From NCBI GenBank assembly GCA_973895155.1, contig OZ316896.1, forward strand, positions 2,294,001 to 2,358,000: a DNA stretch of 64,000 nucleotides, in the 5' to 3' direction. The notes under the pieces were generated by a model that saw nothing but the letters and a program-made list of their open reading frames with translations, was not told the DNA's origin and did not search any database. Origin of the DNA: Marsupella aquatica (Eukaryota > Plantae > Marchantiophyta). The position numbers were made by a program, and so were the translations under genes. How positions within the stretch are numbered: the first letter of the stretch is position 1; every line of letters starts with the position of its first letter. This document shows positions 1 through 53,886 of the stretch, piece after piece.

Positions 1-575
1 ATGCACCTCCAAGAAATGGAACCAGCTCGTAATTTGTACACGAGTCTGGGGTATTCTTAGACTAGCAAAAAGCCAGCTTGAGGAAGTAAATGAAATGCTG
101 ACAAGCATTCCCAATGGAAAACCCCTTCAGAATGTCCATATTGAAGCTTTTGTTAGGATGGAAACACCGAATCTTCCTCCAATCAATTTCTTAGGTTTAT
201 TTTCAAGGTCTGACCTAAATCGATTTCAAGAAGACTGGCACAATCTTGAGAAAGATGAGCAAGCGAGGCTCTTGGAAATGTATGGGGAAGCTTCTAGTCT
301 GGTTTAGAGCCATCTTGAATGGGCTCTTTGTAAAGACTCTTTTTAAGAATATCAACTTATTTTTTTTTGTGGCACAATTCCGAATGAATAAAGAGTTACC
401 CGATTCGCTACGCATAAAATCTATTTGGTTGAATACAAGGACTTGGGGATATGCCTTATCTCTTGTCCCATCAAGAAAAAAATATATACAGACATCCGGA
501 CTCCAACCCTATGCTTTTGGATACACATTATCGCCTGTGGAAACCTTATCGCCTGTGGATATGAAGGTGATAAAG

Positions 576-583
576 TATAAATA
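576..583 (+). promoter_or_regulatory. Candidate TATA box of the ParB-MTase gene
   Basis: TATAAATA followed by a pyrimidine-rich leader, a GT donor at 712 and a TTTTTCAG acceptor at 1140, just before the ATG at 1145. Confidence 0.35.
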
Positions 584-752
584 GAAGTGCCTGGTCAGAA
601 AAAATTACTCTCATTTCTTTTTCTTCTCAACTTTGTTTGCCTCCGCGTTTTTCTCGGGCCGCAACATCTCTATAGCTTTTCGTATTTGCTCGAATCAAAA
701 CCAAAAAATAGGTAAAACCTGAAGAAACTCTCCCCTCCTTGTTTGGTTAATT

Positions 753-1105
753 GTTGAATCCTGAGAGGGATACGCCGTATCCCCATTTGTATTCAACTCT
801 ATTATTTGGCCTTCTTTTCAATTGAATACGAGATGGGATACCGCGTATCCCATCTTGCATTGAACACCCTCTTTTTAGTCTTCCATCCAAACCTCCTCGC
901 TCTTTCTTGACTTTGAATACGAACTGGGATACCGCGTATCCCATTTCGCATTCAACTCCCTCTTTTTCGTGCTTTGCATCAGACTCGAGGCAATTGTTGA
1001 GGTTGGATGCGAAGTGGGATACCGCGTATCCCATTTCGCATTCAACTCCCTCTTTTTCATTCTTTGCGTCAGACTTGGCAATTGTTGATGTTGGATGCGA
1101 AGTGG
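753..1105. repeat. Array 1 of ~43-bp palindromes (TTGAATRCGARNTGGGATAC-CGC-GTATCCCATYTCGCATTCAA) inside a putative 5'UTR intron (712-1140)
   Basis: Units at ~753, 822, 913 and 1003, plus a half unit at 1091; spacing ~68-91 bp. Confidence 0.9.
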
Positions 1106-1144
1106 TTTGGTCTGGTTCTAAGTGTGTCAATCTTTTTCAGGATC

Positions 1145-3106
1145 ATGTGACCGAACAAATCAAAGTCGTCTGGTTCGACCCAGTCTTCACGGACATCCAT
1201 CGTCGATGAGATTTGGAAGAAAGACCTTTACACGGAGGAGAAACTCGTGAGGAATAGGTGGTACTTCAGGGATGCTCGGGTGATGGATATTCACAGAGCG
1301 TATGAAGGTCCAGCGGTGTGGTTGGTTATCGTTAAGGGTAAAGACCATTGCCATTATGGATTAGTCGTGGACACCGGGGAGGCGGATATCACCAACTCAA
1401 AAACAAAACAGCTGAAGAAGATTCCAATGTACCTTTGCATTCTTCCGAACAATGCCTTCACTGTAGTTGTCCTCAACTACGAGAAAATTGATCGGGTCTC
1501 GATGAACACATTTCCTGATGACCCGATCTGCCAGCTAATTTTGGAAGTGCCGGAGATTGAGGACTTCTCTTATTGGTGTTTGAAATTTGTCTTGAAGTCT
1601 TGGAGGGTTGTTGAGGATTTTACGAAGGTAGCGTATAGGTCTGTTGTTGGAGCTGACTTTGGCGTCAAAGAGTGGCCTTTGAAGTTGAAAGTGACGAAGC
1701 CTACCGATCCGGCTTTGAAGTCAGGGGAGATGTCTGGAACACCCTCGACAAAGGAGAAATCTGCCACAGTTTCTTTTAAGGAACCGGCAAAGAGGAAGCT
1801 TGCAGATCAACTCTCTGGGGAAGGTTCTAAAGTAGCGGTGTCAGGAGAAGCTATTGTCAAGAAGAAATTGGATCGACGTGACATCCAGAAGCGCGCGCCT
1901 TTTGCACCATGAAGTGTTGTCTCATCTTTGGTCCCACCAATTTCACAGACACCTCAGATTCCTTCAACTTCGTCAGGTGGGCTTTCTTTATCATCTAGAG
2001 GAGCTGTTAAAGAAAAGAAAAACGATTCAACAGATATCACCACAGCTTTGCAGCGGGAAGAGACACTTGTGGTTCGTGAAGAAGTGTCTCGGTTGATGGA
2101 GACTAAGCGAGTTCAGAAGACAACAGTTATTCTGAAAACAACTAACCTGCTTCTTGTTGACGATATTGACGACGAGAACTCAACGTTGGTTCGAACAATC
2201 GATCGGTTGCATGTGGAGAACATCAAGACTTTGATGAAAATGAATCCGACAAATTTCACGACGCCATTTGTCTTGTTTGTGATCCCAAAAGACTGCCCGA
2301 CAGTGACAGACTGGGACCCAGAAAAGGCAGCAAGTTGGAGATATCGAGTGATTGGAGGTAATCACGGTGCTCGGGCCAAGAGAGAATTGTATCAGGCTTA
2401 TGGGAGATAGATCTTCAATGAACTCCAAGCTTGGGTGTATGCTGGTCTCACAAGGGAGGACATTCAGAAACTTAGCATCCAACATAATATTGATCAGGAG
2501 TACAAGAAAAAAATGAACAACATTGATCAAATCCGAACAATGCATAAGATTTTTATTGCCAGAGGAATGGCAAAAACCAAGGAGACTAGAGAAGCGTGTG
2601 CGATGGAGGTTTGCCTCGACGGGTTTTTTCCGGGGGACGCCACAAGCCTGAAGAAGCATGAGCCTCTCTTCCAAATTGCATTTAGGTCGGGTAAGGTCTG
2701 GGAACTCCAAGACCAGATCTTTGAGATGTGGAACAAGTTGGAGATCAAAGGGCAGAATAAGCAGAAGTCACCGATCAAGAAACTCAAGAAAGGAAAGGGA
2801 AAAGCGCAATCGATTCCAAAAGCTTTGAATAAGCTTGCAGGGGGCCTTACCTTGACACCTTGGAGAGCAATCCAGGGAATTGAACACGACCAATTTTTGG
2901 AGTCCCTTCTTCTCCGAGTGAAGGACCGGATGATCTCTTTGGAGCAGATGGCAAAAGTAGCCGAGAGTTACAAGAAACTTGTGAAAATCAGCAAGCTTTT
3001 TGTTCAGTTGTCAGGGCAGAAAGACTGGGCGACTTGCAAACAAATGTTTCCGAAAGAAACAGAATCTGCCGAGCTTGAAAAATGGAGTGGGAAATTGTCC
3101 GATGTG
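1145..3106 (+). pseudogene. N-terminal exon of transposon cargo gene containing a ParB/Srx-like domain
   Basis: ORFs 1247-1912, 1928-2410 and 2435-3241 share one frame with the ATG at 1145, broken only by TGA1148, TGA1910 and TAG2408. Motif YRVIGGNHGARA resembles the ParB GxxRxxA box. GTATGT donor at 3107. Confidence 0.7.
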
Positions 3107-3184
3107 GTATGTTCTTCCCTTCCACTGATTGGACTTTTCTATTTGTTTTGCCATGTTTGGAGGTTTTCTTCGTGGATTTCTTGT

Positions 3185-3586
3185 TGGAATGCGAAGTGGG
3201 ATATGGGGTATCCCATCTCGGATTCACTTGTGCTTATTTGATGTTGGTGATGTTTCAATGCGGTTTTTTCTTGGTTGAATGCCAAGTGGGATACGCGGTA
3301 TCCCATCTCGTATTCACTTGTGGTTATTTGAAGTTTGTGATGTCTCAATGTGGTTTTTGCTTGGTTGAATTCGAAGTGGGATACGCGGTATCCCTTCTCG
3401 TATTCAATGTGGTTATTTGACGTTTGAGATGTTTCAATGTGGTTTTTGCTTGGTCGAATGTGAAATGGGATACGGGGTATCCCATCTCGAATTCACTTCT
3501 GGTTATTTGACGGTGGTGATGTTTGACTGTGGTTTTTGCTTGGTTGAATACGAACTAGGATACGGAGTATCCCATGTCGCATTCAT
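3185..3586. repeat. Array 2 of the same ~43-bp palindrome, 5 units at 89-90 bp period, inside intron (~3107-3670)
   Basis: Units at 3185, 3275, 3365, 3454 and 3544 with core GGGATAC-NNN-GTATCCC. Confidence 0.9.
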
Positions 3587-3599
3587 CGTCCAGATTTGA

Positions 3600-4781
3600 T
3601 TGTATGAATTCCTAAATGGTTATCTCCCCATTGTCTTTCCTCCAGATTCTTTTAACAAGTTTGCGTTTGCAGTTGAAAGCTTTTTCGAAGAAGAAGAACA
3701 AGATGCAATTGGTGCCGATGCGGTTGAGAAGCCTATGGAGGAGCTGACTTTGAGTGTTATTCCCCCGGGGTTTAAGAATTATGTTCAAGAAGCGATTGAG
3801 AACTACAACCGTCGTCGTGGCATTGAAACGGTTGAAGCAGAGTCGAGTGACCATCGATGGAAAAACGTTGACGGAAATTTTATCAGATATACATTGCATT
3901 GTGGAGATGTCAGGGCGCTGGATAAGTTTGTAGAGAAAAGGAATTACACACTTGCAATTGCAGACATTCCTTATGGATTCAATGCGCCTGGCTCTGAAAA
4001 TGATGAGGTCCCATTTTCAGAGAGTGATATTGTGGATATGGTGAATTGTTTTGCCAAGGTGACAAGTTCAAAGATGTGGAGGTTTGTTGTGATTCACTCT
4101 TTGCAGCAAACTTGGTCTGTGATGAATGCTCTTGGAAAAACTTGTAACGCAGGTGTAGAGGCTGGAATTTGGGAGAAGCCAAATGTACATGCTCATCCTT
4201 CTGGGAATCGATTGGCTTGGGCTTTTGAAAACTGGTCAATCGGATATTATCACGAGAGTGGTATTAGGACCAGAGACATGTACAATTTTGAACATGATGA
4301 GAAAAGTGTAAACATCATAAAAGTCCCTTGTGTTACAAAGAAATATGTAACACCATTGGGAGAAATAGTGAACCCTTACCAGAAACCGATAGCTTTAGCA
4401 GATTGGTTCGTTCAACATTTTAGTGAAGCAAGGGATTGGGTTGCTGATTTATGTGCGGGGAGTGGTTCGACCTCATGCGCTGCCTTGTTAGGGAAACGTC
4501 CGGTGACAGCCGTGGAGCTCAGTGCAAGCCAGGTGGATTGTATCTGGACCCGACTTGTCACGCTTGATGAATCATGGGACTTGAATGATGAAGCAACCGA
4601 GGAGGGTACAGGACCCATGAGCTTTGAGGTTCAACCACCTATTGGTGGTACTACGAGCACCCTCACCACTGGAACTTGCATTATTACAACTGCGGAGGAG
4701 AACGACAATGATGAGGATGAAGATGATGAAGTGGAACATGAAGCTCCGGCACTTGATCTTGGCTCATTCCTTGAGGTGTAG
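3600..4781 (+). CDS. Beta-class DNA amino-methyltransferase (N6-adenine/N4-cytosine, N6_N4_Mtase-like) exon
   Basis: LHCGDV, catalytic motif IV variant ADIPYG, IWEKPN, NPYQKPIAL, SAM-binding motif I DLCAGSGST, and AVELS, in beta order (IV before I); acidic tail. Confidence 0.85.
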   Translation: MYEFLNGYLPIVFPPDSFNKFAFAVESFFEEEEQDAIGADAVEKPMEELTLSVIPPGFKNYVQEAIENYNRRRGIETVEAESSDHRWKNVDGNFIRYTLHCGDVRALDKFVEKRNYTLAIADIPYGFNAPGSENDEVPFSESDIVDMVNCFAKVTSSKMWRFVVIHSLQQTWSVMNALGKTCNAGVEAGIWEKPNVHAHPSGNRLAWAFENWSIGYYHESGIRTRDMYNFEHDEKSVNIIKVPCVTKKYVTPLGEIVNPYQKPIALADWFVQHFSEARDWVADLCAGSGSTSCAALLGKRPVTAVELSASQVDCIWTRLVTLDESWDLNDEATEEGTGPMSFEVQPPIGGTTSTLTTGTCIITTAEENDNDEDEDDEVEHEAPALDLGSFLEV

Positions 4782-4893
4782 ACTTAAGTTTGATTTGTTC
4801 TCTCATGTTGTATCTATTGATCCAAACTTGTGAAATATTGAGGAAGATTATGATTGGACTATGTTCTTATTTCACAAAGTAATGTCTTTGCAG

Positions 4894-6110
4894 GAACCAA
4901 AGGAGGATTTTGTATTAAAACATGTTCTGCATAGATTCTCACACAATCCTTCTAGTGGATTTCTTTTGGACAATAAAACATTGAGCCAACTTCTCAGGGG
5001 TCTCACTATATGGGGACCTCCCCATCGCCTGCGACGTTTTTAGGCCTCGGACCCCCTAAAATGTAAGAAAAAAAATTTATTTATTAACCCCTATAAAGTT
5101 GGAATATTCTTGGAATATTCTAAAAATTGGATTAAAAGGACCCTAATGTTCTTATAAGTCTCAAAATTGAATTTAAAAGACCCTATTGTTCTTCTACAAA
5201 AATTCTTAAGTCTTCCCTTAGAACCAATAAAATGACCCTATCCTTCGTCGCACGTGATATGCCATTTTTGTGGAAGTGAAACCCCCGAGGCCAACTTGAA
5301 CCCGGTCAATATTTGGGTGATGAAATAATGGAATTTTACCCACAATTAATAACCGAGGAACATGGAGATCTGGCTCCCTTAGTAAACACATTATCCTTTT
5401 TTTTTTACCCTTGGCTTGTTTCAAGGATTGAAACAGAACCAGCTGAGACCCTGTTGGAATCAATTCAAAAGATGCGGAATTATTACAAGCCACCATTTTC
5501 CCAAATTGAGGTCATTCTCATGCCAATTCACATGAGCATGCACTGGAGTCTGGTTGTAATATGTTTGGATCGGATTGAATCTTCGATCAAAATGTATCAT
5601 CTAGACTCTCTCGCCGGTCTACACTCAACCCATGTAATTGGATCAATACTGAGCAGGTATGTATATATTCGATTACATTTTTTCAATTTGAATTTATTTA
5701 TGTGGTACATAAATATAAACACTTTGGACTAATAACTTTGAATGATAATTTGCAGATATTTTACAATGGAATGAGAATTATTTTTTGGAAAAGTTCCAAT
5801 GGGAGTTGTGGAGATATACAATCCAATGGTAAGGATTTGAAAAGTTATGTCAACTTTTATTTAGTTCAATTATTAAACACTTTGGACTAACTTTAAGATT
5901 CTTTCTCAGGTACCTCAACAACCAAACAATTCAGATTGTGGTCTATTTGTTCTTCAAAATATGGACGAAATCAGAATTCAATGGCATATTACACAATGCC
6001 TTGATGCACAGTCTTTATTTACTGAAAAATGGTACAATTGTAAAAGAGCATGTAACCTTAGAAAATTCATTCGAGATCAAATTCTAAAATTGATGCATGT
6101 ACCTGTTTAA
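4894..6110 (+). pseudogene. Ulp1/C48 SUMO-protease-like domain (3 exons), interrupted by a MITE
   Basis: Removing the MITE restores TLSQLEPGQYLGDEIMEFY. Catalytic motifs PIHMSMHWSLVVI, HLDSL and, in exon 5910-6110, VPQQPNNSDCGLFVL. Confidence 0.8.
4993..5289 (+). mobile_element. MITE (~297 bp), hAT-like
   Basis: TIRs CTCAGGGGTCTCAC / GTGAAACCCCCGAG; perfect 8-bp TSD GCCAACTT at 4985-4992 and 5290-5297. Confidence 0.9.
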
Positions 6111-6121
6111 GGACATCAATC

Positions 6122-9100
6122 TCAATCCTCTGAGTGTGCAGAACCTCTCTCTAATATAGCAGACTCTATAATTTTTTTAGTTTTTGTTGCTATTTGATTA
6201 GTACTTAAAAGCGCAAAGTTGTATGCATACACCGCTATTGATGATAGAACTAGTTTATCTTGGAGAAGTCGATTAGATATATTATCTTTCTCTGGAAAAT
6301 ATTTCCCATCAATAGCAGACTCAGCACTTGCTTCAGTTGTGTACCATGTGATTTTGATTCTCTCGGGAATGTCTGCAGTTCTTGTCAAAAATTTTGACAC
6401 CTTTGCCATCCAAAACAACTTGCCTTCTGGATCCTTGAATTGTTGCCGCTACACATATCATGGACCACTTATTGTTAACTTCCATATCTCTGAAATCTCC
6501 AAATTCAGCTTGCTTTCGTCGAGGTCCGGAGTACATAATTCTCCGTGGTCCAGCAACTTTGTCAACCAAAGTTGGATCAACACCTTCTTCAACAAGTTCA
6601 TTTCTCACCCTTGGAAGTAGTTGTGCACCTTGATTTTGTTGCGGCCAAACCCACTCAAATAACCACTCACCTTCCTCTAGGTGGTTTTTGATAATATCTT
6701 TTTGTTTCTCAAAAAAACTCATCCACCAAAGTTTATCTTCATTGTCAAAGTAATTGAAACCTTCCTGAATAGCTTTTTCATATTTCACCAGAGTAGTTAA
6801 TGCACCATCTGTATTGGAAGAATCATGGACATCATCCCTCTCAACACCTTTTGCTGACTTTAGTGACATTTGTGCAGCAACCCACATTCTTGAAGTTGGA
6901 ATGTAATTGACGAACGTCACTGCATCTCCCCAATCCTGGGTCGTGGAAAGGTGTTTCCCGTGAAATGTTGTCTCTTCGTTTCCATCCTCCATCACTCGTT
7001 TGAATCTGAATTGCCTTTGAAAGGTTATGAGATTGAGATCTCTCAAGACTCTACCTGAGACTCCCTTCTCATTTGGCTGGTCGTTTTTATTGACAAATTT
7101 TTGAAAATTGGCTACTTCATCCACAAATATGATCAAAGCTTGAGGTGAATATGCTCGTCAAATAATATCCTCGAGAGTCTCCAAGCGAAATGCTTTGTAC
7201 GTGCTTGTTTAACCTAGACGAAAATTTACTAAACATCTGATCTATCTGGTCATGTGTATGACCGACCAACAAGAAACCCACTTTAATCTTGTCAAAAATC
7301 TTCAAATCTACTAACATGTGAAGATAAGCCATCAAGAATTTATTCTTGTTTTCCCGAGTGGTATTATCTAATTGAAGATATAACACTCTTGGTAATGTCC
7401 CATCCCATGTATTCAATACATTTTGAATAACATGTATGGTCAAGTTTGCATCATTATGGATATTGGGATATGTCAAAAATACTTTTGCTGCAAGGTTCCT
7501 GTTGAAGATGAGACAACCTACAACATGTATTGGAATGAAATATTTTTCATCCATGTTCTTTGGACAACGAATAAAATGTGGTAGCTCTGTTTTCTTTTGA
7601 TCCATACCATCTATACAAATACCCAAATACTTGTTGGGCTCATCATAGCATTTTTTACAATGCTTGGCTAACTTCATCCTTTCCAATGATTGTACTTTTC
7701 AATGCTCCATAAAGGCATTGATATACTTTCCTGAAATTATACAATAGCAATGAATTAAAAATCAATAACTAAGGATAAACTTTGACAAATATTGAATTAC
7801 ATGTCATCAAATTAAAGTTGAAGGTTATAGTTAGTGGAACTTACTTTTATCCTCTTCAGTTGTTGCTTTGTCCCGAAGAGCCTTGAATTCAGTACAAGGA
7901 CCACAAGTAGAAAATCGACTCCTTTTAGGAATTCGTACATTTGGAAACTTTTTTTTCCAAACACGCAAAAAATAAGAATATGTAACTTGTTGTTCTTCTC
8001 GCAACATTGTTTCAGCTTCAAAGATTCCATGTATCTCTTGCTTTGTCCAATTGTCTGGCAAGTGATGAATCTCTTTATGGGGAAGACTATCCATATTTTT
8101 TTGGAAAAAATCTTTCAACCATTCCACCAAGTTTAGAAATGAAGGTGAGTCTTCCTTACAAAAAGTATCTCGTTCAATCCTTGTAAACATGTTTGCATGG
8201 ATTGTTGCCAATCTATTATTACCTAAAGAATATAGTTTCTTGAATCCTCCTCTACATATAGGTTGTCCATTTACACTATATCCACGAGAAGTACTACAGT
8301 TGTTCATGATACAACCTCGTAGCAAAATATTTTTTTGCAAGTGTTTACGACCAAAATAATACTTGCGTTGTTTTGAGCATTCCTCTAGACCCAAAGACCT
8401 CAAGCAAAACTTGTCACAACAGGGATACTTAAAAATATATTTAATTTTGTGTTTTTTTAGATTTGCAATGGTAAATCTATCTTTTCTAATCATCTGATCT
8501 CTGATTTTCTTGCTGGGTCTTGTCACCTCTACTCTATCCTGAATAGTGTCGGGAGAACTTACCCCCCCCCCCACTATTTTCTAGTGAATTAGAATTTAAA
8601 ACAAAAAGATTTGATGTAGAGTTGTTTCCACTCTCCACATTTTCTGTAACTGTTTCATGAACAATCTCACCTCCCAAGATCTCTTCAACAACATTTGAGA
8701 TTACAGCAGTCTCTCTGTCATTTGCAGCCTCCTCTGATCTCTCTTCAGAGTCTTCTGAAAATGTAATAGGTGTTCTGAGATTTCTAGTTTGAAATCTTCT
8801 AATGATATTCACATCTTCAGTCGGAGTACCGCCCACTTGTCTCTGAGACTGTAATCCCAGCCTAGGTGATTCTTCTCGACTTGAGGGCTCATCTTGACCA
8901 TTGAATAATCTTTGGACAAGTTTCAATTTAGCATGTACCCTTGAATTTTTGGGCCCTCTCTCCGGCAGCTCACTTCGCAATAATCTCTGAGGAATTTTTT
9001 GGACACTAGATCTCTTCCCTCTTTTGTTCTGCACTTGCCGTCCAATGGAAGATCCAAAAACCTCACACTGCATCCTCGCCAAAGGGCTTCGAAGTCCCAT

Positions 9101-9156
9101 GTTGGTAGTTTCACCACTCTGTGAAATAACTGATGGGAATACCGATTGGGATCCAT
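6122..9156 (-). pseudogene. Sola1-like (DUF7869-type) DDD transposase, frameshifted
   Basis: CIDGMDQKKT, YLQLDNTTRENKN and FLLVGHTHDQIDQMFS; upstream Cys motifs (CCDKFC, ICRGGF, STCGPC); intron 7731-7844; spread over ORFs 8923-9156, 8534-9100, 7831-8574, 7117-7686, 6333-7136 and 6122-6418. Confidence 0.7.
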
Positions 9157-9160
9157 GGAT

Positions 9161-12100
9161 TGTGATGCCTAGACAGGAATCACTCGGCCGGTTAAGTGGG
9201 TAAAGCAGGAAGGCACCCTAGGAACACCTTAGTATAGTGACAAAACAAGGAAAATATAAACAATTAGGGGCAACCATGGAACCCGGGCAGAGGCCGGAGG
9301 TAAGGCTGAGGGTGAAAACCCGATTAGGGTTAGGGCGCGTTAAGCGTCGGCGGCTAGGAAGGATCAACGGGAAGAAGGACCGGCAGAGGAGAGGGGTAAG
9401 GAGCGCTTGCAGGAGATGGTGGCTCATTTGCGAGCACGAACTAGGCAGACGACGACGGGAGGCCAACTACTGTCAGCTGCTTAGGCAAGCACTCGGGGAG
9501 AGAGTAGATACCGACGATCAACCTAAGGAGGGTATGAGCAACGTCAATCAAGCAGCACATTTCTGGGGATGCCTGTTCGAACGGGCAACTGAGTACATCA
9601 AGACTTACGAGGACGAGGAGTCAGAAAGGGCAGCTCGAGAACGGCAGGAGCTCGCTCGATTGTGGGAGCTGCAGAAGACGGCTTTCTTAGGAGGCGAACT
9701 CATCAAGGACGAGTTCCTGTGGACGCCTACTTCCAATCAACTCGACGATCTTCTGTTTTGCAAAGACAGCGTCGTCGGCATCCGAGAGGCCATCAAGAAC
9801 TGCAACGACATACGCTGGGAATTAAAGGGTAGCACGGAAAGGTGGACCCAGGCAACGGTGCTAGGAGAAACCTCCACGGCAGCAGAGATGAAGAGGAAGG
9901 GAGCCGTCAACGATGAAGCCACCCCGGCAAAAAGAACGAGGTCGGCGGCACCAAAGAAGCCAGCCGAGCAGCAGAGCAGGAGGCAGGGAGAAGCCGAAGA
10001 GGAGGAGGTCGATCCCATCAAGGCCATTCCAACCAGGGATGACACCTGGAAGGGCTGGGCGGCAACCCTACCGGTGGAGGTGCAACTACATTTTGCACGG
10101 GAGGAGGATGCATGCTTTACGGCCATGCAGACCAAGAAGTACCAAGGCTTCATGGCCGGATCCGGCTTGGAGGCCTTTGTAAGATTACCATGGCTGAAGC
10201 CGGAGGTACCGGAGTCAGACCTATTAGAATTCGTGGGGTCATGGGAACCCGAGACCAATTGCACGAGGATATATGGGAAGGATTTCTATCTTACTCCCAA
10301 GGTGATTGCCGAAGTGTTTGGCTTGCCGATGGGCAATAAGACCAAAGTTGATACCAGGAAGACCTTGCCTGACAAGGAGTTCCGGTCGTTCCCCGGGCCA
10401 TCAACGAAGAATGGCTTCTTCCGGAACACCTGCACCAACCCGCACATAGGAGAGATGATCGACTTCTTGCGGGTGACCATGCATTGTAACTTGCCGAGGG
10501 CAGAGATCGGCAAAGCACAGGTCTATCTGGCAGAAAGGCCAGACCCAAGCCGGGACTACAACGGGTACCTCCTCAACCAATTGAAGAAGATCTTAAAGGA
10601 GGAGCAGCAGGTAATCGGCATGGGGAGCGTGTCGCGGCTTGGCTATCACATGCCGCTGTTGTGCCGGTATGCCAGAGGTCAGACTTTTGCCCCGGTACTT
10701 CCCCTGCAGGTAAGGGCACCCGAGGAAGCTCCAACGCCGAGGCCGTTGGCTGAGAAGCCTCAACCACCTGTTAGTCCTACGATCGAGCAGGTGTTTAGGC
10801 CCAGGAAGGAAGACTTGCCGATGCAGCAACCAGGCATGCAGAGTCTGCTGAAACTACTGGAGAAAGAAAAGAAATCGGCATCGGCAACAACAACGGCAAC
10901 GGCAACAATGCAGGACACTACTACAGAGGTAGGCCTACACCGGCTCACAAGAGAAAACCCCTTTGCTGGAGACAAGGAGAGAATCAGGCCGGAATCCAAG
11001 CCAGGTGTTCGAATGTACGTGGGAACCTCAAGCTCCGAATCTGAGGCAGAATTGCCTGAAGCTCCTACCGAGGTAGAGGAGGCAGTGGAGGACTGCAGCC
11101 ATGATAATTCCGGCTATGGGTCGGACCATCACGTTCCAGGAGTAAGGACCTGTGGCCGGTTTGTCCCCACACTTCCAAGGGTAGTGCGAGGGGACCCCAA
11201 CCAGCAGAGTAGCCCTGAGTCTCCCCCACCAGATGTTGCTCCCCCGAGCTTCGACGGCATAAAACAGACGGTGCAAGAATTTCAGGAGCGAATCAAGCAG
11301 GAGGAAGAGGCCGCCCTGGCTAAGGAAAAGGATTTACCAGGAGGAGATTGGCCGGAGGACATCAGGCGGCTAGCCGAAAAAGGAAGCAAACCTCTAGCCA
11401 CGATTGAAGAGATCCGCAGGACGGCTTGGGAGCAGAGGCCACGATGGGCGATGCCGATCACTTCTACTTACTCCACCTACGCTAAGAATAGAGCCATGGA
11501 GTATGGTGAGATGTGTGGGGAACTTGCGCTCGGCATCTTTGGAGAGGAGTTGGAGGTAGGACCCTTTTTCCATAGGGAGCAGTTGGAGAAGCACCAATTA
11601 GAAGAAGCGGTGGCTTTAGAGAGAAGCAAGAAGGACGAGGTCATTCGGCGGCTTAGGAGGATGGGAGCCGAGATTGAAGATCTAAGGGCGGCCAAGAAAG
11701 CCCAAGATGAACTGCGGATTAAACGACATGAGCTGAACATCATGCAGGGGCAGTTGGACGCCGCGCAGGCTGATAATCAGAATATCAAGGATAAACTGAC
11801 TCAGACGCAGGAAGAGTTGGCCGACACGATCAAAGAAAGGGAAAAGTGGAAGCAAGAGCTGAAGAATACAGAGGAGGCCCACATAACAGCCAACAGCCGG
11901 GCCATGGCGGAGACCCAAAGAAAGGAATGGGCGTTGAAAGGGGAGCTCGAGAAAATCCGCGGAGCCCTTGAGCAGAAGGAGGTTGAGTTAGGGAAATCCT
12001 ATCAAGGGATTATGGCGCTGCAGCAGGAGCTTGCGTCCCTGACGGCCAGCTTCAAGGCCGACCTAAGGGAGAAGGACGAGATGCTCGAACAGACTTACGC

Positions 12101-12175
12101 CGTTTTTCACGAAATCGAAAACACACTTCTCGTTTGGTGGTCATACTTCTCGTTTGGTCCGTCACTGTGTTTAGC
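9161..12175 (+). mobile_element. LTR-retroelement fragment (TG-starting) carrying a large accessory ORF
   Basis: Abrupt switch to GC/CpG-rich sequence at TGTGATGCC; ORF is homologous to the one in the TSD-flanked unit 22183-25881. Confidence 0.55.
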
Positions 12176-12182
12176 CTTGTGA
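9237..12182 (+). CDS. 981-aa retroelement accessory protein: plant-transposon-protein-like domain plus long C-terminal coiled coil; 3' end truncated at the gag junction
   Basis: Long open frame; GLEAFVRLPW..LLEFVGSW..IYGKDFYLTPKVIAEVFGLP; heptad-rich C-terminus. Confidence 0.65.
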   Translation: MTKQGKYKQLGATMEPGQRPEVRLRVKTRLGLGRVKRRRLGRINGKKDRQRRGVRSACRRWWLICEHELGRRRREANYCQLLRQALGERVDTDDQPKEGMSNVNQAAHFWGCLFERATEYIKTYEDEESERAARERQELARLWELQKTAFLGGELIKDEFLWTPTSNQLDDLLFCKDSVVGIREAIKNCNDIRWELKGSTERWTQATVLGETSTAAEMKRKGAVNDEATPAKRTRSAAPKKPAEQQSRRQGEAEEEEVDPIKAIPTRDDTWKGWAATLPVEVQLHFAREEDACFTAMQTKKYQGFMAGSGLEAFVRLPWLKPEVPESDLLEFVGSWEPETNCTRIYGKDFYLTPKVIAEVFGLPMGNKTKVDTRKTLPDKEFRSFPGPSTKNGFFRNTCTNPHIGEMIDFLRVTMHCNLPRAEIGKAQVYLAERPDPSRDYNGYLLNQLKKILKEEQQVIGMGSVSRLGYHMPLLCRYARGQTFAPVLPLQVRAPEEAPTPRPLAEKPQPPVSPTIEQVFRPRKEDLPMQQPGMQSLLKLLEKEKKSASATTTATATMQDTTTEVGLHRLTRENPFAGDKERIRPESKPGVRMYVGTSSSESEAELPEAPTEVEEAVEDCSHDNSGYGSDHHVPGVRTCGRFVPTLPRVVRGDPNQQSSPESPPPDVAPPSFDGIKQTVQEFQERIKQEEEAALAKEKDLPGGDWPEDIRRLAEKGSKPLATIEEIRRTAWEQRPRWAMPITSTYSTYAKNRAMEYGEMCGELALGIFGEELEVGPFFHREQLEKHQLEEAVALERSKKDEVIRRLRRMGAEIEDLRAAKKAQDELRIKRHELNIMQGQLDAAQADNQNIKDKLTQTQEELADTIKEREKWKQELKNTEEAHITANSRAMAETQRKEWALKGELEKIRGALEQKEVELGKSYQGIMALQQELASLTASFKADLREKDEMLEQTYAVFHEIENTLLVWWSYFSFGPSLCLAL

Positions 12183-13135
12183 TTAGGATTGCCACAGTAG
12201 TTGCAAGATGGCAGCATGAAAGCAACATATGCTGGTTTGGTCTTGGAAGCATACTGTGGCACACGGGAAGGGGTGGTCATTGTAGGGGCAGCAGCCTGGT
12301 ACCTGGATCGCGGTGGACGCGCAATACTGGCCTCATAATGTGCATGGGCCAACTCAAGTTTCTCATCAGTGTCATAGACAGTGAACAGTGTATAGCCGTC
12401 TCCAAACTCTGAGAATACTTGTTGCAACACTTGCGAATGGAGAGCTGGTGTGCCCTCCAATGTGCGAAGATAGCGATGAGCAGCTTCCAGGTCAGTGATG
12501 CTCTGGGTGTCCTCCTTCAGCTTGAGAAGCTGGCGATACATCATCTTCAATGTTTCATCGCGCTGCCTCACAAAGGTGGCCAACTGCATGATTTTGTCAG
12601 CACTCTTGATTGGGAATTCCAATTCAACAACCTGGAAAAACTCAGCCATTGGATCAGCAAAGGCAAGGGAATCAATGGTGGGAGAAATGCTTGATGTAGC
12701 CTGTGCCAAGACAGTGGGAGTAACTGGCGTAGTGGTAGGAACTGGAGTAGGAGGGGAAGTGGCAGGAGCAGCAGCATGGGCTGCAATGGCATTCTGTAAG
12801 GCCAATTGTGAGGCTGCCGCAATTTCACTGGCATAGGTAGGGTTAGGCAACCTTGTGACAGCAAGCAGCCATTGAGAATGCTGCTCATACACATCCAAAG
12901 CCTCATGGTGCACATACCTGGCTAGCTGCTTAAATGCAAAAGCATTTGTGAAATTGTTGCCGTACTTCAACTCCAATTTGTAAACGACAGTGTAGAAAGT
13001 GGATTTGAACTCACGTAAAGAGACAATGCCTGGCCGCCCGCTGAAGCGCTCAATGCGGCCAGATGAGTGGTTGACATCCATGCTGTATGTCGGTGAAGCA
13101 AGAACAACCACTGATGCAGAAGGGGTAAATGGCAA
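12176..13135 (-). pseudogene. Ty3/gypsy-type gag, truncated in the zinc knuckle
   Basis: IERFSGRPG..LREFKSTF, ALDVYEQ, RQRDETLKMMY and CNYCGNPNH; no pol downstream. Confidence 0.75.
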
Positions 13136-13410
13136 TGAAGTGATAGCAGGCTTCGGAGTAGTGGTGAAGCGATCGCCAAATATAGCAGGAGGATTGCGTG
13201 GTGTGGGTGTTGCTGCTGTCTGTGGACGTCGTCAAAATTTCCGAGACTCCAATGAAATTGGCACCAATGGTCGTGGATCACTCCGTAAATGGTACCTGGG
13301 TGTCGGTGGCGATGTGCTGCTATGACTTGGCTCCTCTGCTGACATGCTGCATGCTCACCCGGGGTGCCTAAATAAAAAATGTCCCCCTTCCCGGTGGTAC
13401 AAGGTGCCAA

Positions 13411-14976
13411 TGGGAAAGAAACTGACAAGAAAAATGAGTGGTAGCCCCAAGGCTAGGAAATAAAACCCACAAAGGAAACAACAGTGCGAGGCAGAAATGT
13501 GTAGACCGGCCCTGCCGAAAATATACTCACAAAAAAATGAACGGAAAGAAAACAAGAGGAGACGGTGAAAAGGGTTCTCCGTTATGTGTATACACAGGGG
13601 TCTCTGTATACACATAAAGGGCACCAGTCGGTGCCCAATGTGGATACATCGTCGGGCTCCCTAGAAGAAAAAGAGGCCGGAAAGAAGCAGGTGTATGCAC
13701 ACTCGGGAGGCACGGTACCCTATGCTGCAGGGCGCGGCGAGGCGAGGCTCGGTGACAACTTCATGGCTAGGGCCCTGCATAGGGCTTCGTGCCCCACTAT
13801 GAGCTCCCGAAAAGATGGGGCTACGAGCTCCCCCTATCCCCCTTTTGGGCCTCGTGCCCTGGCAGCGAGTGACTCCCGAGAGAGGAGTCGAGTGTACTCC
13901 CCCCCCTCTTTAATGCTGAATTAAGGGCTTCGTGCCCTGCAGGAGTACTCCCGTGTGAGGGAGGTCGAATTGAACTCCCCTCCCCTGCTTCAATGTGCTT
14001 AGGGCCTTGTGCCCTCTCCTGGCACTCTCGCCCCCCTCCTTTAATGTTGCTTCATGCCCTGCAGGAGACTCCCCCTACTTTAATGTGTACTCCTGTCCCC
14101 TCCTCTTAATTTGCCATAGGGCCTCGTGCCCTCCATCCTCTCTCGCTTATGCTCGGCCACGGCAGGATGCAAAACAAAGGAATAGCGAGGCGACGAGGCA
14201 AAAAAGGAGTAAGAAAGGCAGAAAGAAAAGGGGCGCGCGGCCCTATGCAGTCGGGAAATAGTCGCGCGCAGTGGCCGAGGCAGTCCGGTGGTGGTCGCGC
14301 GGCAGCCGTGGCCGGGAAATGGCCATAAAAACTAACAAAAAAGGGGCCCCGAACTGCCAAAGGGTCTTAAAAATGCGAGCGAGGGCGCAGCGGCCTGTGC
14401 AGTCGGCAGCAAGTCGCCGATGTAGGTCACAAAGAAGGTTGCGGCCGGGAAAAAAAAATTTGGGCCCCTTGTTATGTGTATACTCCACAATAAACCCATA
14501 ACTTTTAACTCGTCACTCCGATGTTCATCAAAGAAATTGCAATGGCTTCACCAGAAATTGTCGAAATCGTCACGAGCAATCTTCTTCCCCTCACTGCCAA
14601 CTCGGCAGTTCTTCTTGAATAAAAGGCATAAGAGAAACAATTGTACTGAAATCGAATCGAAAACCGGTAGGATGCCAAGATCGGTCGGGAGCATCTAATG
14701 AATCACTGTGTGAATCCCGTGTACGGAACCGACGAGCACTGTCTGAGCTCTGTCAACAGCGATTCAAGAATAACTGAAAACCCACAAAGAAAGACATGCC
14801 CTAAGTAAACAAAGTCCTGGCGTCACACTAACAAGCGTGTTTGCTTCAAGAACGCCTGGCATTTGCTATAAGAACATGTCGCTAACTCAAGTAGTACACT
14901 AGCCCTAACTACATACCTAGCGGGCATGCGAGGGACATGCCGATGTGCATAAGAGGCACTGTCCCTCGGCATGACA
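13411..14976 (-). mobile_element. Probable 5' LTR of the gag-bearing element
   Basis: On the - strand starts TGTCATGCC at a sharp GC/AT boundary and ends ..CCCA followed by TGG.. (PBS-like) upstream of gag; no TSD found. Confidence 0.4.
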
Positions 14977-15117
14977 TTGCAGTCTTTTATATCAATGTAT
15001 GTTTGTTTTGATTTATTTTAGGCAAGGTGTATTCGTTGTATTTTTGGATTTTGAAATTATTTTACCCCCCTTTAATACTTTTAATTTTATTTTTTGAGAC
15101 CCCCTTTTAGGTCTATA

Positions 15118-15420
15118 CTCAGGGGCCTCAATCCAAGGGGTGTCCCATATCACACCCAAAATTTTGGGGGCAATAAACACAATAAAACTTAAGTCAATAA
15201 ATTTATTTGAAGAATTTTTTACCCCTACCTTAATTGAATTTTCTTGGAATATTCTCAACTATGGTTTAAAAAAACCCCTATGTTTCTTATAATTCTCAAA
15301 ATTGGATTAAAACAAATGTTCTTCAACAAAAATTTAAAATTCTTTAACTAAACCTAATAAAAAACCTATATAAATTAGTTGCGCGTGATAGGTTGGAAGA
15401 AAAGATGTGAGAACCCCAGG
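15118..15420 (+). mobile_element. Diverged copy of the ~300-bp MITE
   Basis: CTCAGGGGCCTCA..TGAGAACCCCAGG; TSD-like GGTCTATA/GCTCTATA (7/8); internal similarity to 4993-5289 (TTCTTGGAATATTCT, TCTCAAAATTG, CGTGATA). Confidence 0.7.
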
Positions 15421-16976: not shown

Positions 16977-17284
16977 CCCAGGGTCCTCACTTTTTTTTTA
17001 AGATTACTACCATTCCACGCAAATAAGTTAGGGGTTTTTAATTCAATCAGATGAAAGAGTTCACTTTAGTTGAAAAACATTAAGGTTTTCAATCCAATTT
17101 TGAAAATTGTAAGTTAGAGCTATAGGGTTTTTTCAACCAAATTTAAGAGTATTCCTAGAATATCCCATAAAGTTAGGGCCTAAAATACTAAAAATTGTTT
17201 ATTTTCTATAAGTTTTATGGTGTTTATTACTTGAAAACTTTGCACATGATAGGGTCCCACCAGCCTTGGAGTAAGGCTCCCAAG
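16977..17284 (-). mobile_element. Third, inverted and more diverged MITE copy
   Basis: CCCAGGGTCCTCAC..GTAAGGCTCCCAAG; TSD-like CCAATAAT/CCCATAAT (7/8); internal reverse-complement similarity. Confidence 0.55.
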
Positions 17285-17619
17285 CCCATAATGCCCTCTC
17301 AGCGATACCTTAATGTTTAATGTATACTTACTATACTGCCCTTCTTCATTTTTCCTTTCAAGTTTTCAGGGCATTATGGGAGCATATGTAATGTCCCGGA
17401 CAAGATCTGGATAGTTTATGTAGGAAGATTCTCCTCTCTTTTTACTAAAGTTAGAAAAAAACAAAAATATCTCAGACATACCTTTTAGTGTAGTAAGGTC
17501 TTGTTTCCTGAACCTTATGGGCCCGGTTTTCACTGTCGGACAAGATGTGTCCTTGTCCGACACGACAAATGACAACTTGTCCATTCAAAAACCCTCTATT
17601 TGTCCAATATTCTCTGATA

Positions 17620-18235
17620 TTCCCCGGCCCGGTGTCAAATTCTCCCGGCCCCTCCCGGCCGAGCACCACACTCTCCCGGCCTGGTCGAAAATCTTCCCGG
17701 CCAGGTCCTAAAACCCCCCTGCCCGGCCCGGCCGGGGGTTGGGGAGGGACGGGAGAGGGGAGACCGGGCCGGGGGAGGGAGGCCGGGGCGCGGGGTGGGG
17801 TGGGGACGGGGCGGGGAGGGAGGCCGGGGGTGGGGAGACCAGGCCGGGGGGCAGGGAGGCCAGGGCGGGGGGTGGGTGCCCGGGCGGGAGGGGGGGCGGG
17901 GGGGGAGAGGGGAGGGGAGGGAAGCCGGGGGTGGGGAGGGGAGGGAGGGAGGCCGGGCCGGGGGGAGGAAGGCCGGGCCGGGGGGGCAGTGGGAGAGGAG
18001 AAAGGCCGGGGCCGGGGCGGGGGTGAGAGAAGCCGAGGGTGGGGAGGGGAGGGAGGGAGGCCGGGGCGGGGGGGGGGGAGTGGGAGAGGAGGAAGGCTGG
18101 GGGGAGGGGGGAGCGGGGGCTGGGAGGCCGGGGGAAGGGGAGGGAGGGGCGGGCCGGGGGGCAGGGCGGCCGGGCGGTAATTTACTTTGCGGCCGGGGCG
18201 GTAATTTACTTTGCGGCCGGGATTAGGGTTAGGGG
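17620..18235 (+). repeat. Extremely G-rich GGCCGGGG/GGGGA low-complexity tract upstream of the hAT transposase
   Basis: Dense G3-G5 runs; ends in a 22-bp duplication (GGCGGTAATTTACTTTGCGGCC) and TTAGGGTTAGGG. Confidence 0.85.
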
Positions 18236-19085
18236 CCACGAGACGGCCAAAATTAGGGTTAAAAGAGTGTAAACCAAAAATTAAGGCTAAAAATACGGGA
18301 AAAGGGGTCCGTGGGAGGCCATAAAAGGGGAGACCCCCAATCATTGTACACACAACTTAGTACGAGAAACACTAAGCCACTAAGGTCTAAGGGTAAGTTT
18401 TGCAATACTTCTCAATTTTAGAGTCTTATAATGAAATGTTTTTCTTTAGTGAATTGTAATGGAGTAATATATATGAATTTTTGTATGCGCGGGTCTGGAG
18501 CCTTGGCTCGGCTCGGGATATTTCATACAAGAGTTCTATATATTAACTTAACAACTTAACGTCATTTATTTAGTAAGCAAAAAAATTTCAAAGGATAGAG
18601 AAACCCATGTGCGTAGGCTTGGAGCTTTGGCTCAGTCTGTGATATTTCACATGTGTGTCACAATTTCCCTGAAAATATTTCTGCTTTATAAAGAAGTGAT
18701 TGTTAAGTTATAGATATTCTATAACTTAGGACGAAGTAGGGATGTAAGCAAGTATGAGAGATTGGGAAACGATGGTGCGTAATCTTGGAGTCTCGACTCA
18801 GATTGTGGTAATTCATCAAAGTGTCCTACTCTTTTATACTTGTTACAACCAAACATAAAAACAACAAAAATACTATGATAAAATTTAGGGAACTCAAAAT
18901 GTTGTGCAATGTGATTATTCTTGGGGTTCATTGTATCTGCTATATGAAGTTTGATATACAATAAATATTTATTTTGTATTGTTGTATTTATGTATGTTCA
19001 GTGTGCGTTGGAGAGGAGATGACACTGTCATTTTATTGACGGTACACTGTAGAATTTGAATTTTGCATGTACATCTTTCTTTACA

Positions 19086-22001
19086 ATGATTTCTTCCGAT
19101 GACAATGAGTCCGGTGAATCTGGATATCGTTCCACTATCCCTAGGCATGGAGCAAATCATTCGCGAGAGCATGGTGCAAAATTTTCTACAGTGTGGAAAT
19201 ATTTTGAACAATGTGATGCGCCTTCAACATCTAATGATGCAAACCGTATGTATCAAAAATGCAAGTTTTGTAAAACATATATTACTTTTCATGCAACACG
19301 AGCCAAAGCACATTTGATGGGAAACATCATCAAAGGGAATGCACCACCATGCCTAGGCCTGTATGGTCATGTGGAGTTGGATGAAATCAACAGAATGTAC
19401 AATGTCATCAAAGTTCCATCAAACATCAACTACAAACGAAGGGATGGAACCCATATCTTGCGGGATGTCAAGGGTCGCAGGCCAGAGATTGGAACTTCCC
19501 ATTCACAAGCATCCACACGAGAGTCTAACCATTTTCAAATGGAAAATGAGTCAAATACGACTCATATGGCTCGGGCAGGAAGTCTTTCAAACCCGATTAT
19601 GGATGCTTATCAAGTTCCACATAGAGCGTATTTGGACAAGCTTTGGGCAAAAGATTTCTACACAAGTGGTATTGCATTCAATGTTTCACAGAATCCTTAC
19701 TTTCGAGAAGCAGTACACGAGACTTCAAAAGGTATTGTAAATGGGTATTCTCTTCCCATTATGCGAAATTTGCGAATGAAGTTGTTGGAGGAAGCCAAGG
19801 AAGATCTCACAAAAGACATCACCAAAATCATGAAGGAAACAAAACTTTTTGGTTATTCTGTTTCATCAGATGGATGGGAAAACATTCGTAGGGAACCTTT
19901 GATGAACGTCATGTTGTTGACTTCTAAAGGTGATTTTTTCTTGATATTGGAATGCGGCACAAGTTGATAGGAAAGATGGAAAATATCTTGGAGAGATGTG
20001 GCTGAAATATATCGATGACATTGGTCCAGATCACATCGTTCAAATTGTAACTGATGGTGCGCCTGCAAATCGTGTAGCGGGTTGTGAGATAGTCATGAAA
20101 AAATATCCACATGTCACTTGGAGTTGGTGTGCTGCCCACGTGTTCAATTTGTTGCTAGAAGATATGTGCGGTCATAAGAATGTAGTGCTAGATGAGAGTA
20201 GACAGAATCCATTCAAAAGCATTTTTAAACTCTTGAGATGGATAGTAAAAGCAGTTTCATCGTCCCAAAAGCTCTTCGCAATATTTGTGAGAAAATCGAC
20301 TTACAAAAAACTACTAAATCCAAATGCAACAAGATTTGCAACAAATTTTCTCATGGCGCAAAGAGCATTGGAGCTAAGAGGAGCTTTGCAACAAATGGTC
20401 ATTGATGATAAATGGGAGTCTTATCGTGATAGACTTCCTGTGCGTGCAAAATCAAATGGTCACATGACAAGGGCCAAGGCAGAAGAACTTAAATGGTGGA
20501 TACAACAAGATAAATTTTGGGCCGATGTGAAAGCTACAGTGAACTTCTTTCTTCCGTTGGTGAAGATGCTTCGCGAATTTGATGGTGCTTCACCCCAATC
20601 AGCCTGGTTGTATTGGAGTTTGAAAAGAGGGATTACTGATTTGAAGGCAAGCATGTCAGAATGTCCATTGGTAACAGAGTTCTTGAAGCCAAGGATATTA
20701 AAAGTGTATATGGATCGAAGAGAATCTCTTACCACCGATTTCATGCTAGCTGCAGCATATATCAATCCTCAAATGTTTTTTGATGAAGACCTAGATGTTG
20801 CTGGAGATGGAGAACTATGTCGAGGTTTCAATGAGTACATTGCCCGATATGCCGAACACAAGGTGAAGGAAGGGGTCAACCATGATCGTGAGGTTAATGC
20901 ACTCATTTCTGCCATACAATTGCAAGCAATTGATGCGCAAAAAAAATACCAAACACAACAGTAACCATGAGAGGAGCCCAATCTAGTATAGGTCAAGTAA
21001 GTCCACGAGAGTGGTGGCATTCATACGGTGCTGATTATCCAGATTTAAGAGTTTTGGCTAGAAAAATCTATCACCAAAAAATGTGTGCATCTGCGTGTGA
21101 AAGAAACTAGAGTTCTTATGGATTTATTCATTCTGCAAGTCGCAACAGATTGACAAATGATCGAGCAAAGGATTTAGTGTTTGTATTCACAAACATGAGA
21201 GTGGAGAAAGGGCTTATAAAAGTAAGAAATCCCCATACGTTTATATATCAACGTTATGAGGAAAGAAGAGCAACAAATAACGGTGTCAGGCCATTATCCA
21301 CTGAGCAGACTCAGAATGAAGGGTGTGACGCAATGTATACCGCCCTTGGTCAAGAAGATGTCAAAGATTTTGATGCAATTGATGATGCGGATGAAGCCTT
21401 GGAAGGATTATTATTACATAAAGATGGTGACTTCTTAACTCGTCTTCCACCAGATATAGATGTAAGTGATGCAGGTGATTGGGAGAATGAAATGGATTTC
21501 GAGATGTATCCTACAATTGACGAGTCGCAGATTGAAGATGAAGATCATGCATCGTTGTATTCAGATTTTGCAACACCTTTCCAACCAAACGCATCTTGGG
21601 CTTATCCATCATTAAACGTCCATAATGATGTCGACCCAAGTAGCTCATACTTTGTTCAACAACACACTAGCACACAAGGGCATCATTCTAAGGGAAGCAA
21701 ATCAGCTACTTTTCAACAACCATATAATGTTCAAGGTACATCTTTGAACAACACACGTGCACCATGGGAAGAAGCTACTACAATCTTCAATGAGTATGGA
21801 GGTCAGACTATGACTAATCCATATACATCCAACAATCCTATTGATTGTGAATTTCAAAGAACATCATCATTTCAACAAGCTCAGAGGAATGTCCATCTGC
21901 AAAATCGCGACCCAATTGCATGGGCTGCAGAGGAAGAGTGGAATCAAGCTTTGCAACAAAATCACAACAAAAACACTAGGAATTTTCTTTCACAGCCTTG
22001 A
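19086..22001 (+). pseudogene. hAT transposase (zf-BED, DUF659 core, dimerisation domain)
   Basis: VWKYF..CKFC..AKAHL; SSDGWENIR; QIVTDGAPA; WCAAHVFNLLLEDM; PNATRFAT; WWHSYG..ASACERN*S..SRNRL; frameshifts near 19950 and 20950, stop at 21108. Confidence 0.9.
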
Positions 22002-34200: not shown

Positions 34201-34340
34201 GGAGTAGGAGTCCCTCATATTTTTGTATAAAACACAATTTTGTAATAAATGTGATCCTTGAACTAACTCATCTTGTCATGGTTGGTCGCAGTTGAAGTGA
34301 TTGTTGTTTCCTGCTGCGTGGGGTGTGACTGTGAATCTAC

Positions 34341-53875: not shown

Positions 53876-53886
53876 GCCTGCGCATG

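Follow-up and report, generated by a model that had tools for sequence, protein, structure and literature searches.

The closest described counterpart of the system considered here is Sola1-1_Ec32 of the brown alga Ectocarpus (PMC12477816), a complete 21.5-kb element with terminal inverted repeats (TIRs) and a 4-bp target site duplication (TSD). On the strand opposite its transposase, it encodes a 1104-aa protein in which a ParB-like part is fused to an N4C/N6A methyltransferase (MTase), and self-modification has already been proposed for it; the transposase has its best match in the moss element Sola1-1_PPa, and a review places Sola1 in Physcomitrella (PMC9033089). The accessible parts of the Ectocarpus description mention no target palindrome, Ulp1 or land plants. 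Here, we analyze a 64,000-nucleotide stretch of the Marsupella aquatica genome (Marchantiophyta; assembly GCA_973895155.1, contig OZ316896.1, positions 2,294,001 to 2,358,000 of the forward strand), hereinafter the window. It likely carries a decayed copy of a Sola1-type plant DNA transposon, the second (accessory) gene of which joins a ParB-fold module to a beta-class DNA MTase and comprises about 1020 codons without the Ulp1 exons. The likeness to Sola1-1_Ec32 drawn here is one of architecture. This ParB–MTase system is real, under selection and transposon-borne; it belongs to a kind proposed earlier from algae, here represented in a land plant. It is not categorically new, since both the architecture and the self-modification idea are in print for Sola1-1_Ec32. 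A bacterial contaminant was rejected in view of the spliceosomal introns and the plant-type neighbours (CACTA, hAT).

Several other systems are comparable in part. The red-algal Plavaka elements with the accessory genes PAG2 and PAG3 (Petroll et al., bioRxiv 10.1101/2025.02.11.637652) carry a ParB-like protein beside tandem inverted-repeat arrays and a PF01555 methylase in the same element; however, they are of the EnSpm/CACTA type, their ParB-2OG oxygenase and PF01555-SET proteins are encoded by separate genes, and the available text describes no bipartite site. VANC of the VANDAL elements (PMC5735166) is similar in layout, with family-specific motifs in tandem repeats, introns, intergenic and upstream element DNA. 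In contrast to the present family, VANDAL is a Mutator-like element with short non-palindromic motifs, its protein is described in the available text without a methyltransferase domain, and VANC has been experimentally shown to cause the loss of 5-methylcytosine (5mC). Prokaryotic-type beta-class amino-methyltransferases of multicellular eukaryotes include rotifer N4CMT (PMC8885841) and Marchantia MpDN4MT1 (bioRxiv 2021.02.12.428880); these are host genes writing N4-methylcytosine (4mC), and N4CMT has an SPPY motif and a chromodomain, whereas the window family combines D-x-P-Y with a ParB module and is set in a transposon (MpDN4MT1 being compared by description only). Mobile elements with prokaryote-like adenine methylases (DAMs) are also known among DIRS and long terminal repeat (LTR) retrotransposons (bioRxiv 10.64898/2026.05.21.726589); unlike the element described here, they are retroelements with an NPPY-type DAM, the available text has 0 occurrences of ParB, and DAM-LTRs are reported absent from Streptophyta. 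ParB–terminase loci of phages, as well as adenine methylases fused to ParB and helix-turn-helix (HTH) domains in chlorophytes and chytrids, with few such enzymes in land plants, were described by Iyer et al. 2016 (PMC4738411, as far as its accessible text goes). Neither the fusion in a land-plant transposon nor the bipartite site described below was found to be reported in the searchable literature, whose scope excludes subscription papers, Repbase, and the preprint and Ectocarpus FASTA supplements; Repbase may already annotate a ParB–MTase gene in moss Sola1.

A conserved ParB–methyltransferase fusion beside a putative transposase

The methyltransferase is encoded by exon 2 of the accessory gene (Table 1), where the motifs reported by the sequence-only reading of this DNA were located: DIPY (3963-3974), NPYQKP (4371-4388) and DLCAGSGST (4446-4472). 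Motif IV (DIPY 3963) precedes motif I (DLCAGSG 4446), which binds S-adenosylmethionine (SAM), as in the bacterial and phage N6-adenine MTases CcrM, RsrI and MboIIA; both motifs were aligned to CcrM and 5hek, and DIPY aligns with the DPPY of N6-adenine beta enzymes. The PF01555-like fold that had been expected was confirmed by a Pfam match above the gathering cut-off (27.0 bits versus 26.7; homologs up to 1.5e-19) and by PDB profile matches to beta-class enzymes. Atlas features of the exon gave values of 0.95-0.97 to PF01555 clusters, all sets displayed being PF01555. A PDB search with the single sequence returned RsrI as its sole match, at 0.75, and a single-sequence fold was unusable (predicted local distance difference test score, pLDDT, 37).

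The homolog search covered 1.84 billion representatives and yielded 311 clusters at E<=0.001. Among 150 homologs, 104 cover motif IV and 94 cover motif I. The catalytic motifs are conserved and by no means degenerate in all copies: the first residue of motif IV is D in 96/104, D-x-P-(Y/F/W/H) is found in 77/104 (DIPY, the commonest variant, in 29, DAPY in 11, DPPY in 9), and the G-x-G of motif I is kept in 80 of the 94. SPPY marks most N4C enzymes and DPPY marks N6A enzymes, according to the available part of PMC8885841. SPPY was found in 0/104 homologs, and the best family-profile PDB matches are N6-adenine beta enzymes (1e-17 to 1e-12), with the N4C enzymes N4CMT and PvuII weaker (7.5e-8 and 4e-5). 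The rotifer-type N4C assignment was rejected on these two grounds, and the link to 4mC enzymes drawn by the sequence-only reading is not supported. Nothing in the analysis connects the family with MpDN4MT1 or N4CMT, which leaves the idea that such elements brought these enzymes into plants speculative. Motif IV points to N6-methyladenine (6mA), so that N6-adenine is a better guess for the target base than N4-cytosine.

Exon 1 has the single reading frame with a GGNH motif that had been noticed, interrupted by three in-frame stops at 1148, 1910 and 2408. It aligns with the N-terminal halves of intact fusion proteins (E 6e-29 to P0010), and therefore ParB and MTase form a conserved fusion; its N-terminal part also resembles that of locus L002 (25% identity, 1e-8). 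For the window sequence itself, Pfam contained no ParB family match. An AlphaFold model of 2060-3106 built from a 20-row alignment (pLDDT 85.5) was used for structural comparison. All eight Foldseek matches at E<0.001 are Noc/ParB proteins (best 4.8e-5, about 280 columns aligned), and the top five by Z (9.7 to 7.6) include PadC (Z 9.7, root-mean-square deviation 2.9, 99 aligned), KorB (Z 8.6), pNOB8 ParB and sulfiredoxin (Z 7.6). PadC is a serine kinase with the ParB/sulfiredoxin (Srx) fold. The ParB/Srx fold predicted for the GGNH domain is thus borne out by the model. The helical half matches the DNA-binding domains of ParB, KorB and SopB with Z 3.5-4.1, and the intact relative L004, whose three exons are open, matches HTH_ParB at 8.6e-4 (19.9 bits, below the Pfam cut-off of 22.6), so this region is likely an HTH DNA-binding domain. 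The motif reads GGNHG in the window and L002-L004; homologs have GGGH or GGNH with T, S, C, Y or G as the next residue. All of these lack the G-x-x-R arginine by which ParB CTPases bind the nucleotide, and therefore the use of CTP is doubtful.

Intact ParB–MTase fusions were found in Chara, Ginkgo, Adiantum and Riccia. Thirty homologs were looked up by name, and the organisms given for them are Chara braunii (five), Adiantum nelumboides (three, plus one cluster member), Riccia sorocarpa (two) and Ginkgo biloba (one); none is from Marchantia polymorpha. In quick trees, whose rows were chosen for MTase coverage and thinned, the family is separate from the 28 prokaryote-like rows, and the window lies within a 25-row clade (support 97) containing all eight named plant rows. 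Phage MTases match weakly in 574 records; among the 15 matches listed, only the MTase part is shared (24-29% identity). Exact short-pattern scans, which miss distant kin, detected no MTase or transposase relatives in viral contigs and no relatives in prokaryote genomes. Word-index protein searches for longer forms returned nothing, which is weak evidence, as one search covered only 1382-3945 aa. The Chara gene model P0006 contains two tandem ParB–MTase units, and the distant homolog P0121 has a weak PHD-finger match after its MTase-like part.

A metagenome scan gave eight loci, six of which are true relatives; L007 and L008 are weak matches and are excluded from all counts. The ParB exon lies upstream of the MTase in 5/6 loci. 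The same putative transposase stands tail-to-tail with the MTase gene in four of the six (L001, L003, L004 and L006); where both stops are seen, in three loci, they are 320-473 bp apart, and the contigs of the remaining two end 305 and 360 bp past the MTase stop, too short to contain it. The linkage of methyltransferase and transposase suggested by the window is therefore repeated elsewhere. In the window, 1,341 bp separate the two stops. Three of the 15 MTase pairs among the six loci have a measurable dS, with dN/dS of 0.05-0.07; in the other 12, pS is 0.75-0.86 against a pN of 0.13-0.29. Synonymous sites are near saturation between most loci, which therefore represent old, separate families, and the ratios indicate strong purifying selection on the MTase. 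The fusion, its tail-to-tail linkage to the same putative transposase in four other contigs and purifying selection on both domains are observed.

The putative transposase of the window matches DUF7869 at 8.5e-41 (Pfam), is 45-77% identical to the convergent gene of the four loci, and has an Atlas match of 0.97 to DUF7869 clusters, in which Streptophyta is the commonest taxon. It contains the acidic motifs DGMDQ, LDN and HTHDQID, the three being identically spaced in the window and L006; we assume that they correspond to a Sola1-like DDD triad. Profile searches returned DUF7869 only and no Sola1 label. Of the convergent Sola1-like transposase claimed to lie 11 bp away, the position stood (stops at 6108-6110 and 6122-6124), whereas the Sola1 identity was not established for want of TIRs or a TSD; judging by the motifs and the Ectocarpus parallel, the label is likely. 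The Ectocarpus terminus is matched by a CGGTT at 9189, but six such sequences occur in 9.4 kb and the match was dismissed as chance. On the right, the element abuts an LTR-like insertion and no terminus was found; the left end may fall outside the window.

The window copy is unable to make the ParB–MTase protein. Its decay, recognized by the sequence-only reading, is seen in the in-frame stops, in one frameshift near the 5′ end of exon 2, shortly after 3673, and in the insertion at 4993-5289. The phase-0 acceptor at 3671-3672 is backed by the start of P0193 and other homologs. A homolog that is 80% identical over the aligned part starts with QLKSFSKKKKK, fitting this acceptor and therefore implying that the frameshift follows it shortly. 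In L002 (1690-2075) and L004 (1235-1900), a palindrome-bearing intron separates the N-terminal domain from the ParB domain; the corresponding region of the window is one continuous frame with the stop at 1910 and no palindrome. A relic reading frame with stops occupies 1-600 (+), upstream of a TATA-like box at 576-583; it has no Pfam match and no counterpart in the loci, and could belong to the element or not. Of what the sequence-only reading put forward, the linkage to a transposon, the folds of the ParB and beta-class MTase domains and the conservation of the motifs all hold.

Bipartite palindromes in the non-coding DNA of the element

Nine palindromic repeats at 767-3573 had been overlooked. 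The upstream ones lie mostly within tandem units of about 90 bp, 5′ of the accessory-gene ATG, and the others are in the intron (Table 1). The GGGATAC-N3-GTATCCC pattern occurs nine times in positions 1-9200 of the window, 0 times at <=2 mismatches in the other 54.8 kb, and 0 times in 10 resamplings. Five of the loci have the core GCGA(G/T)AC-N2-GT(A/C)TCGC, and L004 has a third variant, with no cross-matches among the three core patterns. In the six loci, 58 palindromes were counted in 6,110 non-coding bp against one in 15,804 coding bp; as the patterns were read off the same sequences, these counts are descriptive, not predictive. The palindromes are family-specific and restricted to non-coding DNA.

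Outside the search pattern, a GAAT stands exactly 18 bp from the spacer in 67/136 half-sites (0.8 expected), and AAT at distance 17 is found in 95/136, ranging from 2/8 (L006) to 17/18 (window). The site thus forms a 38-39-bp palindrome whose inner core is variable and whose outer (G/C)AAT box is shared. Cores differ at their centre from family to family and also inside a family, and many of them contain CG; the outer AAT is constant. Repeated palindromic (parS-like) sites are therefore present in cis with the ParB–MTase gene, their binding being predicted only. In the relatives, palindromes also flank and interrupt the transposase gene.

The Ulp1 exons and neighbouring DNA

Table 1. Features of the transposon copy and of the adjoining insertion; positions are those of the window.
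Feature	Coordinates	Strand	Details
Four bipartite palindromes	756..1043		GGGATAC-N3-GTATCCC 17-bp cores at 767, 835, 926, 1016; outer GAAT...ATTC boxes
Exon 1, accessory gene	1145..3106	+	single frame; N-terminal domain of unknown function, low-complexity linker, ParB-like region
ParB/sulfiredoxin-fold domain (by model)	2099..2509	+	GGNH 2354-2365; model residues 14-150 match PadC
All-helical region, likely ParB-type HTH DNA-binding domain	2510..3097	+	Foldseek columns and weak Z matches
Intron	3107..3672	+	GT-AG; five palindromes inside
Five intron palindromes	cores 3198, 3288, 3378, 3467, 3557		inside intron 3107-3672
Exon 2, beta-class (permuted) amino-methyltransferase	3673..4781	+	DIPY / NPYQKP / DLCAGSG, acidic tail, TAG stop
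Ulp1/C48 protease exons	4894..6110	+	4894-5656 (split by the miniature element), 5756-5828 (with stop), 5910-6110
Miniature inverted-repeat transposable element (MITE), 297 bp	4993..5289		15-bp imperfect TIRs, 8-bp target duplication (hAT-like length), within Ulp1 exon
Decayed putative transposase (DUF7869)	6122..9156	-	intron 7731-7844, several frameshifts and stops; 5′ end uncertain
GC-rich LTR-retrotransposon-like insertion(s)	9161..14977		abuts transposase 5′ end; TG...-type starts, primer-binding-site-like sequence near 13270

The accessory protein had also been read as fused to a Ulp1 protease. C48 protease exons are indeed present: two of them match PF02902 (1.1e-11 and 9.2e-5; 45.4 and 22.8 bits against a cut-off of 20.7), the His, Asp and Cys motifs (HW, D and QQPNNSDCG) are there, and the introns are well formed, although the gene is broken by the MITE and a stop. 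The fusion to the MTase was not supported. The window keeps the ancestral TAG at 4779-4781, where all six relatives end in TAG, and Ulp1 is found in 0/6 related loci and 0/43 homologous proteins; a constitutive Ulp1 fusion was rejected on these grounds. An in-frame splice from a weak GT at 4776 to the AG at 4893 could possibly join the two. Given the absence from relatives, the shared TAG and the 1,341-bp spacer, Ulp1 appears to be a lineage-specific capture, that is, later, copy-specific cargo in the window lineage and not a conserved third domain. The MITE body is similar to 15183-15362 and 17065-17167, and three related AT-rich MITE-like copies lie within 12 kb (4993-5289, 15172-15362 and 17065-17228).

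In the LTR-like region, a gag-like ORF at 12107-13231 was recognized by eye, with no Pfam match. The long GC-rich open reading frames (ORFs) 9222-12182 (+), 12107-13231 (-) and 22839-24899 (+) likewise have no Pfam match; the first is antisense to and overlaps the gag-like ORF, the LTR-like region has no pol, and a similar coiled-coil ORF is located at 22839. A hAT element at 17600-22001 contains DUF659 and, by eye, a BED-like N-terminus, with a very G-rich repeat tract (17750-18220) ahead. Two related large CACTA elements lie in inverted orientation at 30650-42290 (+) and 43700-55450 (-) and are 70-93% alike. Each has Tnp2 and TnpA-like genes plus cargo ORFs, some of them unknown, among which are an NSD-like triple PHD finger (32046-32753 and 53195-53902) and a twin BRCT protein (33337-34200 and 51730-52647). 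Chromatin-reader and repair-domain cargo is thus carried by a second transposon type in the window. At 59872-64000 (-), a stop at about 63268 interrupts a protein-kinase ORF (PF00069 1.9e-12); the ORFs that follow are unknown and partly of low complexity, and this group may be another element's cargo.

A possible self-marking system and its alternatives

ParB and Noc read 16-bp palindromes. By analogy with parS recognition, a dimer of the ParB/HTH part would read the 16-17-bp inner core, and from there each tethered MTase would reach outward by about one helical turn to the conserved (G/C)AAT box, where it would write N6-methyladenine. The mark could protect the element from host silencing or activate its promoters, as VANC does for VANDAL elements. 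The head and the core could drift together without any change in the target of the enzyme, and this would account for the bipartite pattern. The layout of the sites, in introns, leader and intergenic DNA, with tandem amplification and family specificity, parallels that of VANC motifs and so favours anti-silencing as the effect of the mark. In full, this model has a protein that binds its element's own non-coding palindromes and methylates an adjacent adenine, thereby keeping its own family active; we consider its chances to be about evenly balanced. Self-marking, raised by the sequence-only reading, remains the best model, though as an idea it is preceded by Ectocarpus Sola1-1_Ec32 and red-algal Plavaka.

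A number of observations weigh against this model. Methylation, binding and expression are all predicted from sequence or structural models. Evidence for the HTH is weak (Z about 4, Pfam match below the cut-off), and the G-x-x-R arginine is missing. DIPY is without the first proline of DPPY, the exact form of which is seen in only 9/104 homologs. The core patterns were derived from the sequences in which they were counted, the limits of the coding DNA were drawn manually, and tandem copies are non-independent. All six loci share one contig-name prefix and may derive from a single host; they are partial contigs, and no TIR or TSD was found in the window. Unlike its relatives, the window has no palindromes 3′ of 3573. 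The CpG/GpC ratio, taken as a possible footprint of protection, is not significantly higher in the palindrome-bearing half (0.87) than in the transposase half (0.59, p 0.11); age and composition confound its contrast with the neighbouring CACTA (0.35, p 2e-6). Retrotransposon DAMs yielded no 6mA in E. coli (bioRxiv 10.64898/2026.05.21.726589, in its available part).

The non-canonical motif IV, in which DIPY (29) and DAPY (11) outnumber DPPY (9 of 104), agrees with an alternative in which the palindromes are bound but the MTase domain no longer transfers methyl groups, and a DNA-binding, base-flipping or SAM-binding scaffold blocks silencing, closer to VANC. However, the second position of motif IV acts through the backbone, and it is Ile or Leu in the active adenine methylases Erm and KsgA. 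The inactivity of DAMs in E. coli and the reported lack of abundant genomic 6mA in streptophytes (bioRxiv 10.64898/2026.05.21.726589) also agree with a scaffold, as does the judgement, in the accessible text of PMC4738411, that DIRS DAMs are likely inactive. Against it, the Asp, the second Pro, the Tyr, QKP and the G-x-G SAM loop are all kept under strong purifying selection, and we regard a pure scaffold as unlikely.

Dam gates the transposition of IS10 and IS50. The ParB part might similarly serve transposition, gathering or bridging element DNA for the transposase, or the palindromes might be transposase sites switched by methylation. This would suit the constant tail-to-tail pairing with one transposase, the ability of ParB proteins to bridge and load on DNA, and the palindromes around and within the transposase gene of relatives; however, the palindromes do not form terminal arrays, the majority being located in internal introns and the 5′ leader. 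In red algae, ParB genes accompanied by inverted-repeat arrays are found on elements with unrelated transposase families (bioRxiv 10.1101/2025.02.11.637652, available text), which ties the repeats to ParB and not to the transposase and leaves such control rather improbable.

Equally improbable is an active enzyme that represses the element, controls its copy number or writes 4mC at the CG-containing core: sites in the leader downstream of the TATA-like box, where a bound dimer could repress, CG in many cores and the 4mC marking of silent rotifer transposons (PMC8885841) speak for it, whereas the absence of SPPY from the 104 homologs, the variable core centre beside a fixed outer AAT, and the higher expression that accompanies 6mA in DAM-LTRs (bioRxiv 10.64898/2026.05.21.726589, both sources in their available parts) speak against it.

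The self-marking model can also be extended to streptophytes as a whole. From Chara to ferns and Ginkgo, they may long have carried DNA transposons with a parS/ParB-guided adenine methylase, in which a diversifying head picks the family's palindrome core and the tethered enzyme writes 6mA at the fixed AAT box one turn away, a private anti-silencing mark for each family. This extension is tentative, and we think it may well prove wrong. If true, it would mean a private mark in lineages considered to be without writers of DNA 6mA, as well as a natural programmable site-specific 6mA writer for plants.

The published algal cases consist of domain annotations and a hypothesis. What is new here is the 38-39-bp bipartite, family-specific palindrome, which makes the published self-modification hypothesis directly testable; the plant family supplies near-intact natural copies, three palindrome-core families and a fixed outer AAT box predicting the position of the mark. 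Even if the enzyme is dead, the conserved bipartite site would still indicate a sequence-specific self-recognition system. If self-marking is true, transposons would have a second way, besides that of VANC, of altering their own epigenetic state, and land plants, in which the existence of DNA 6mA is disputed, would have a defined source of it.

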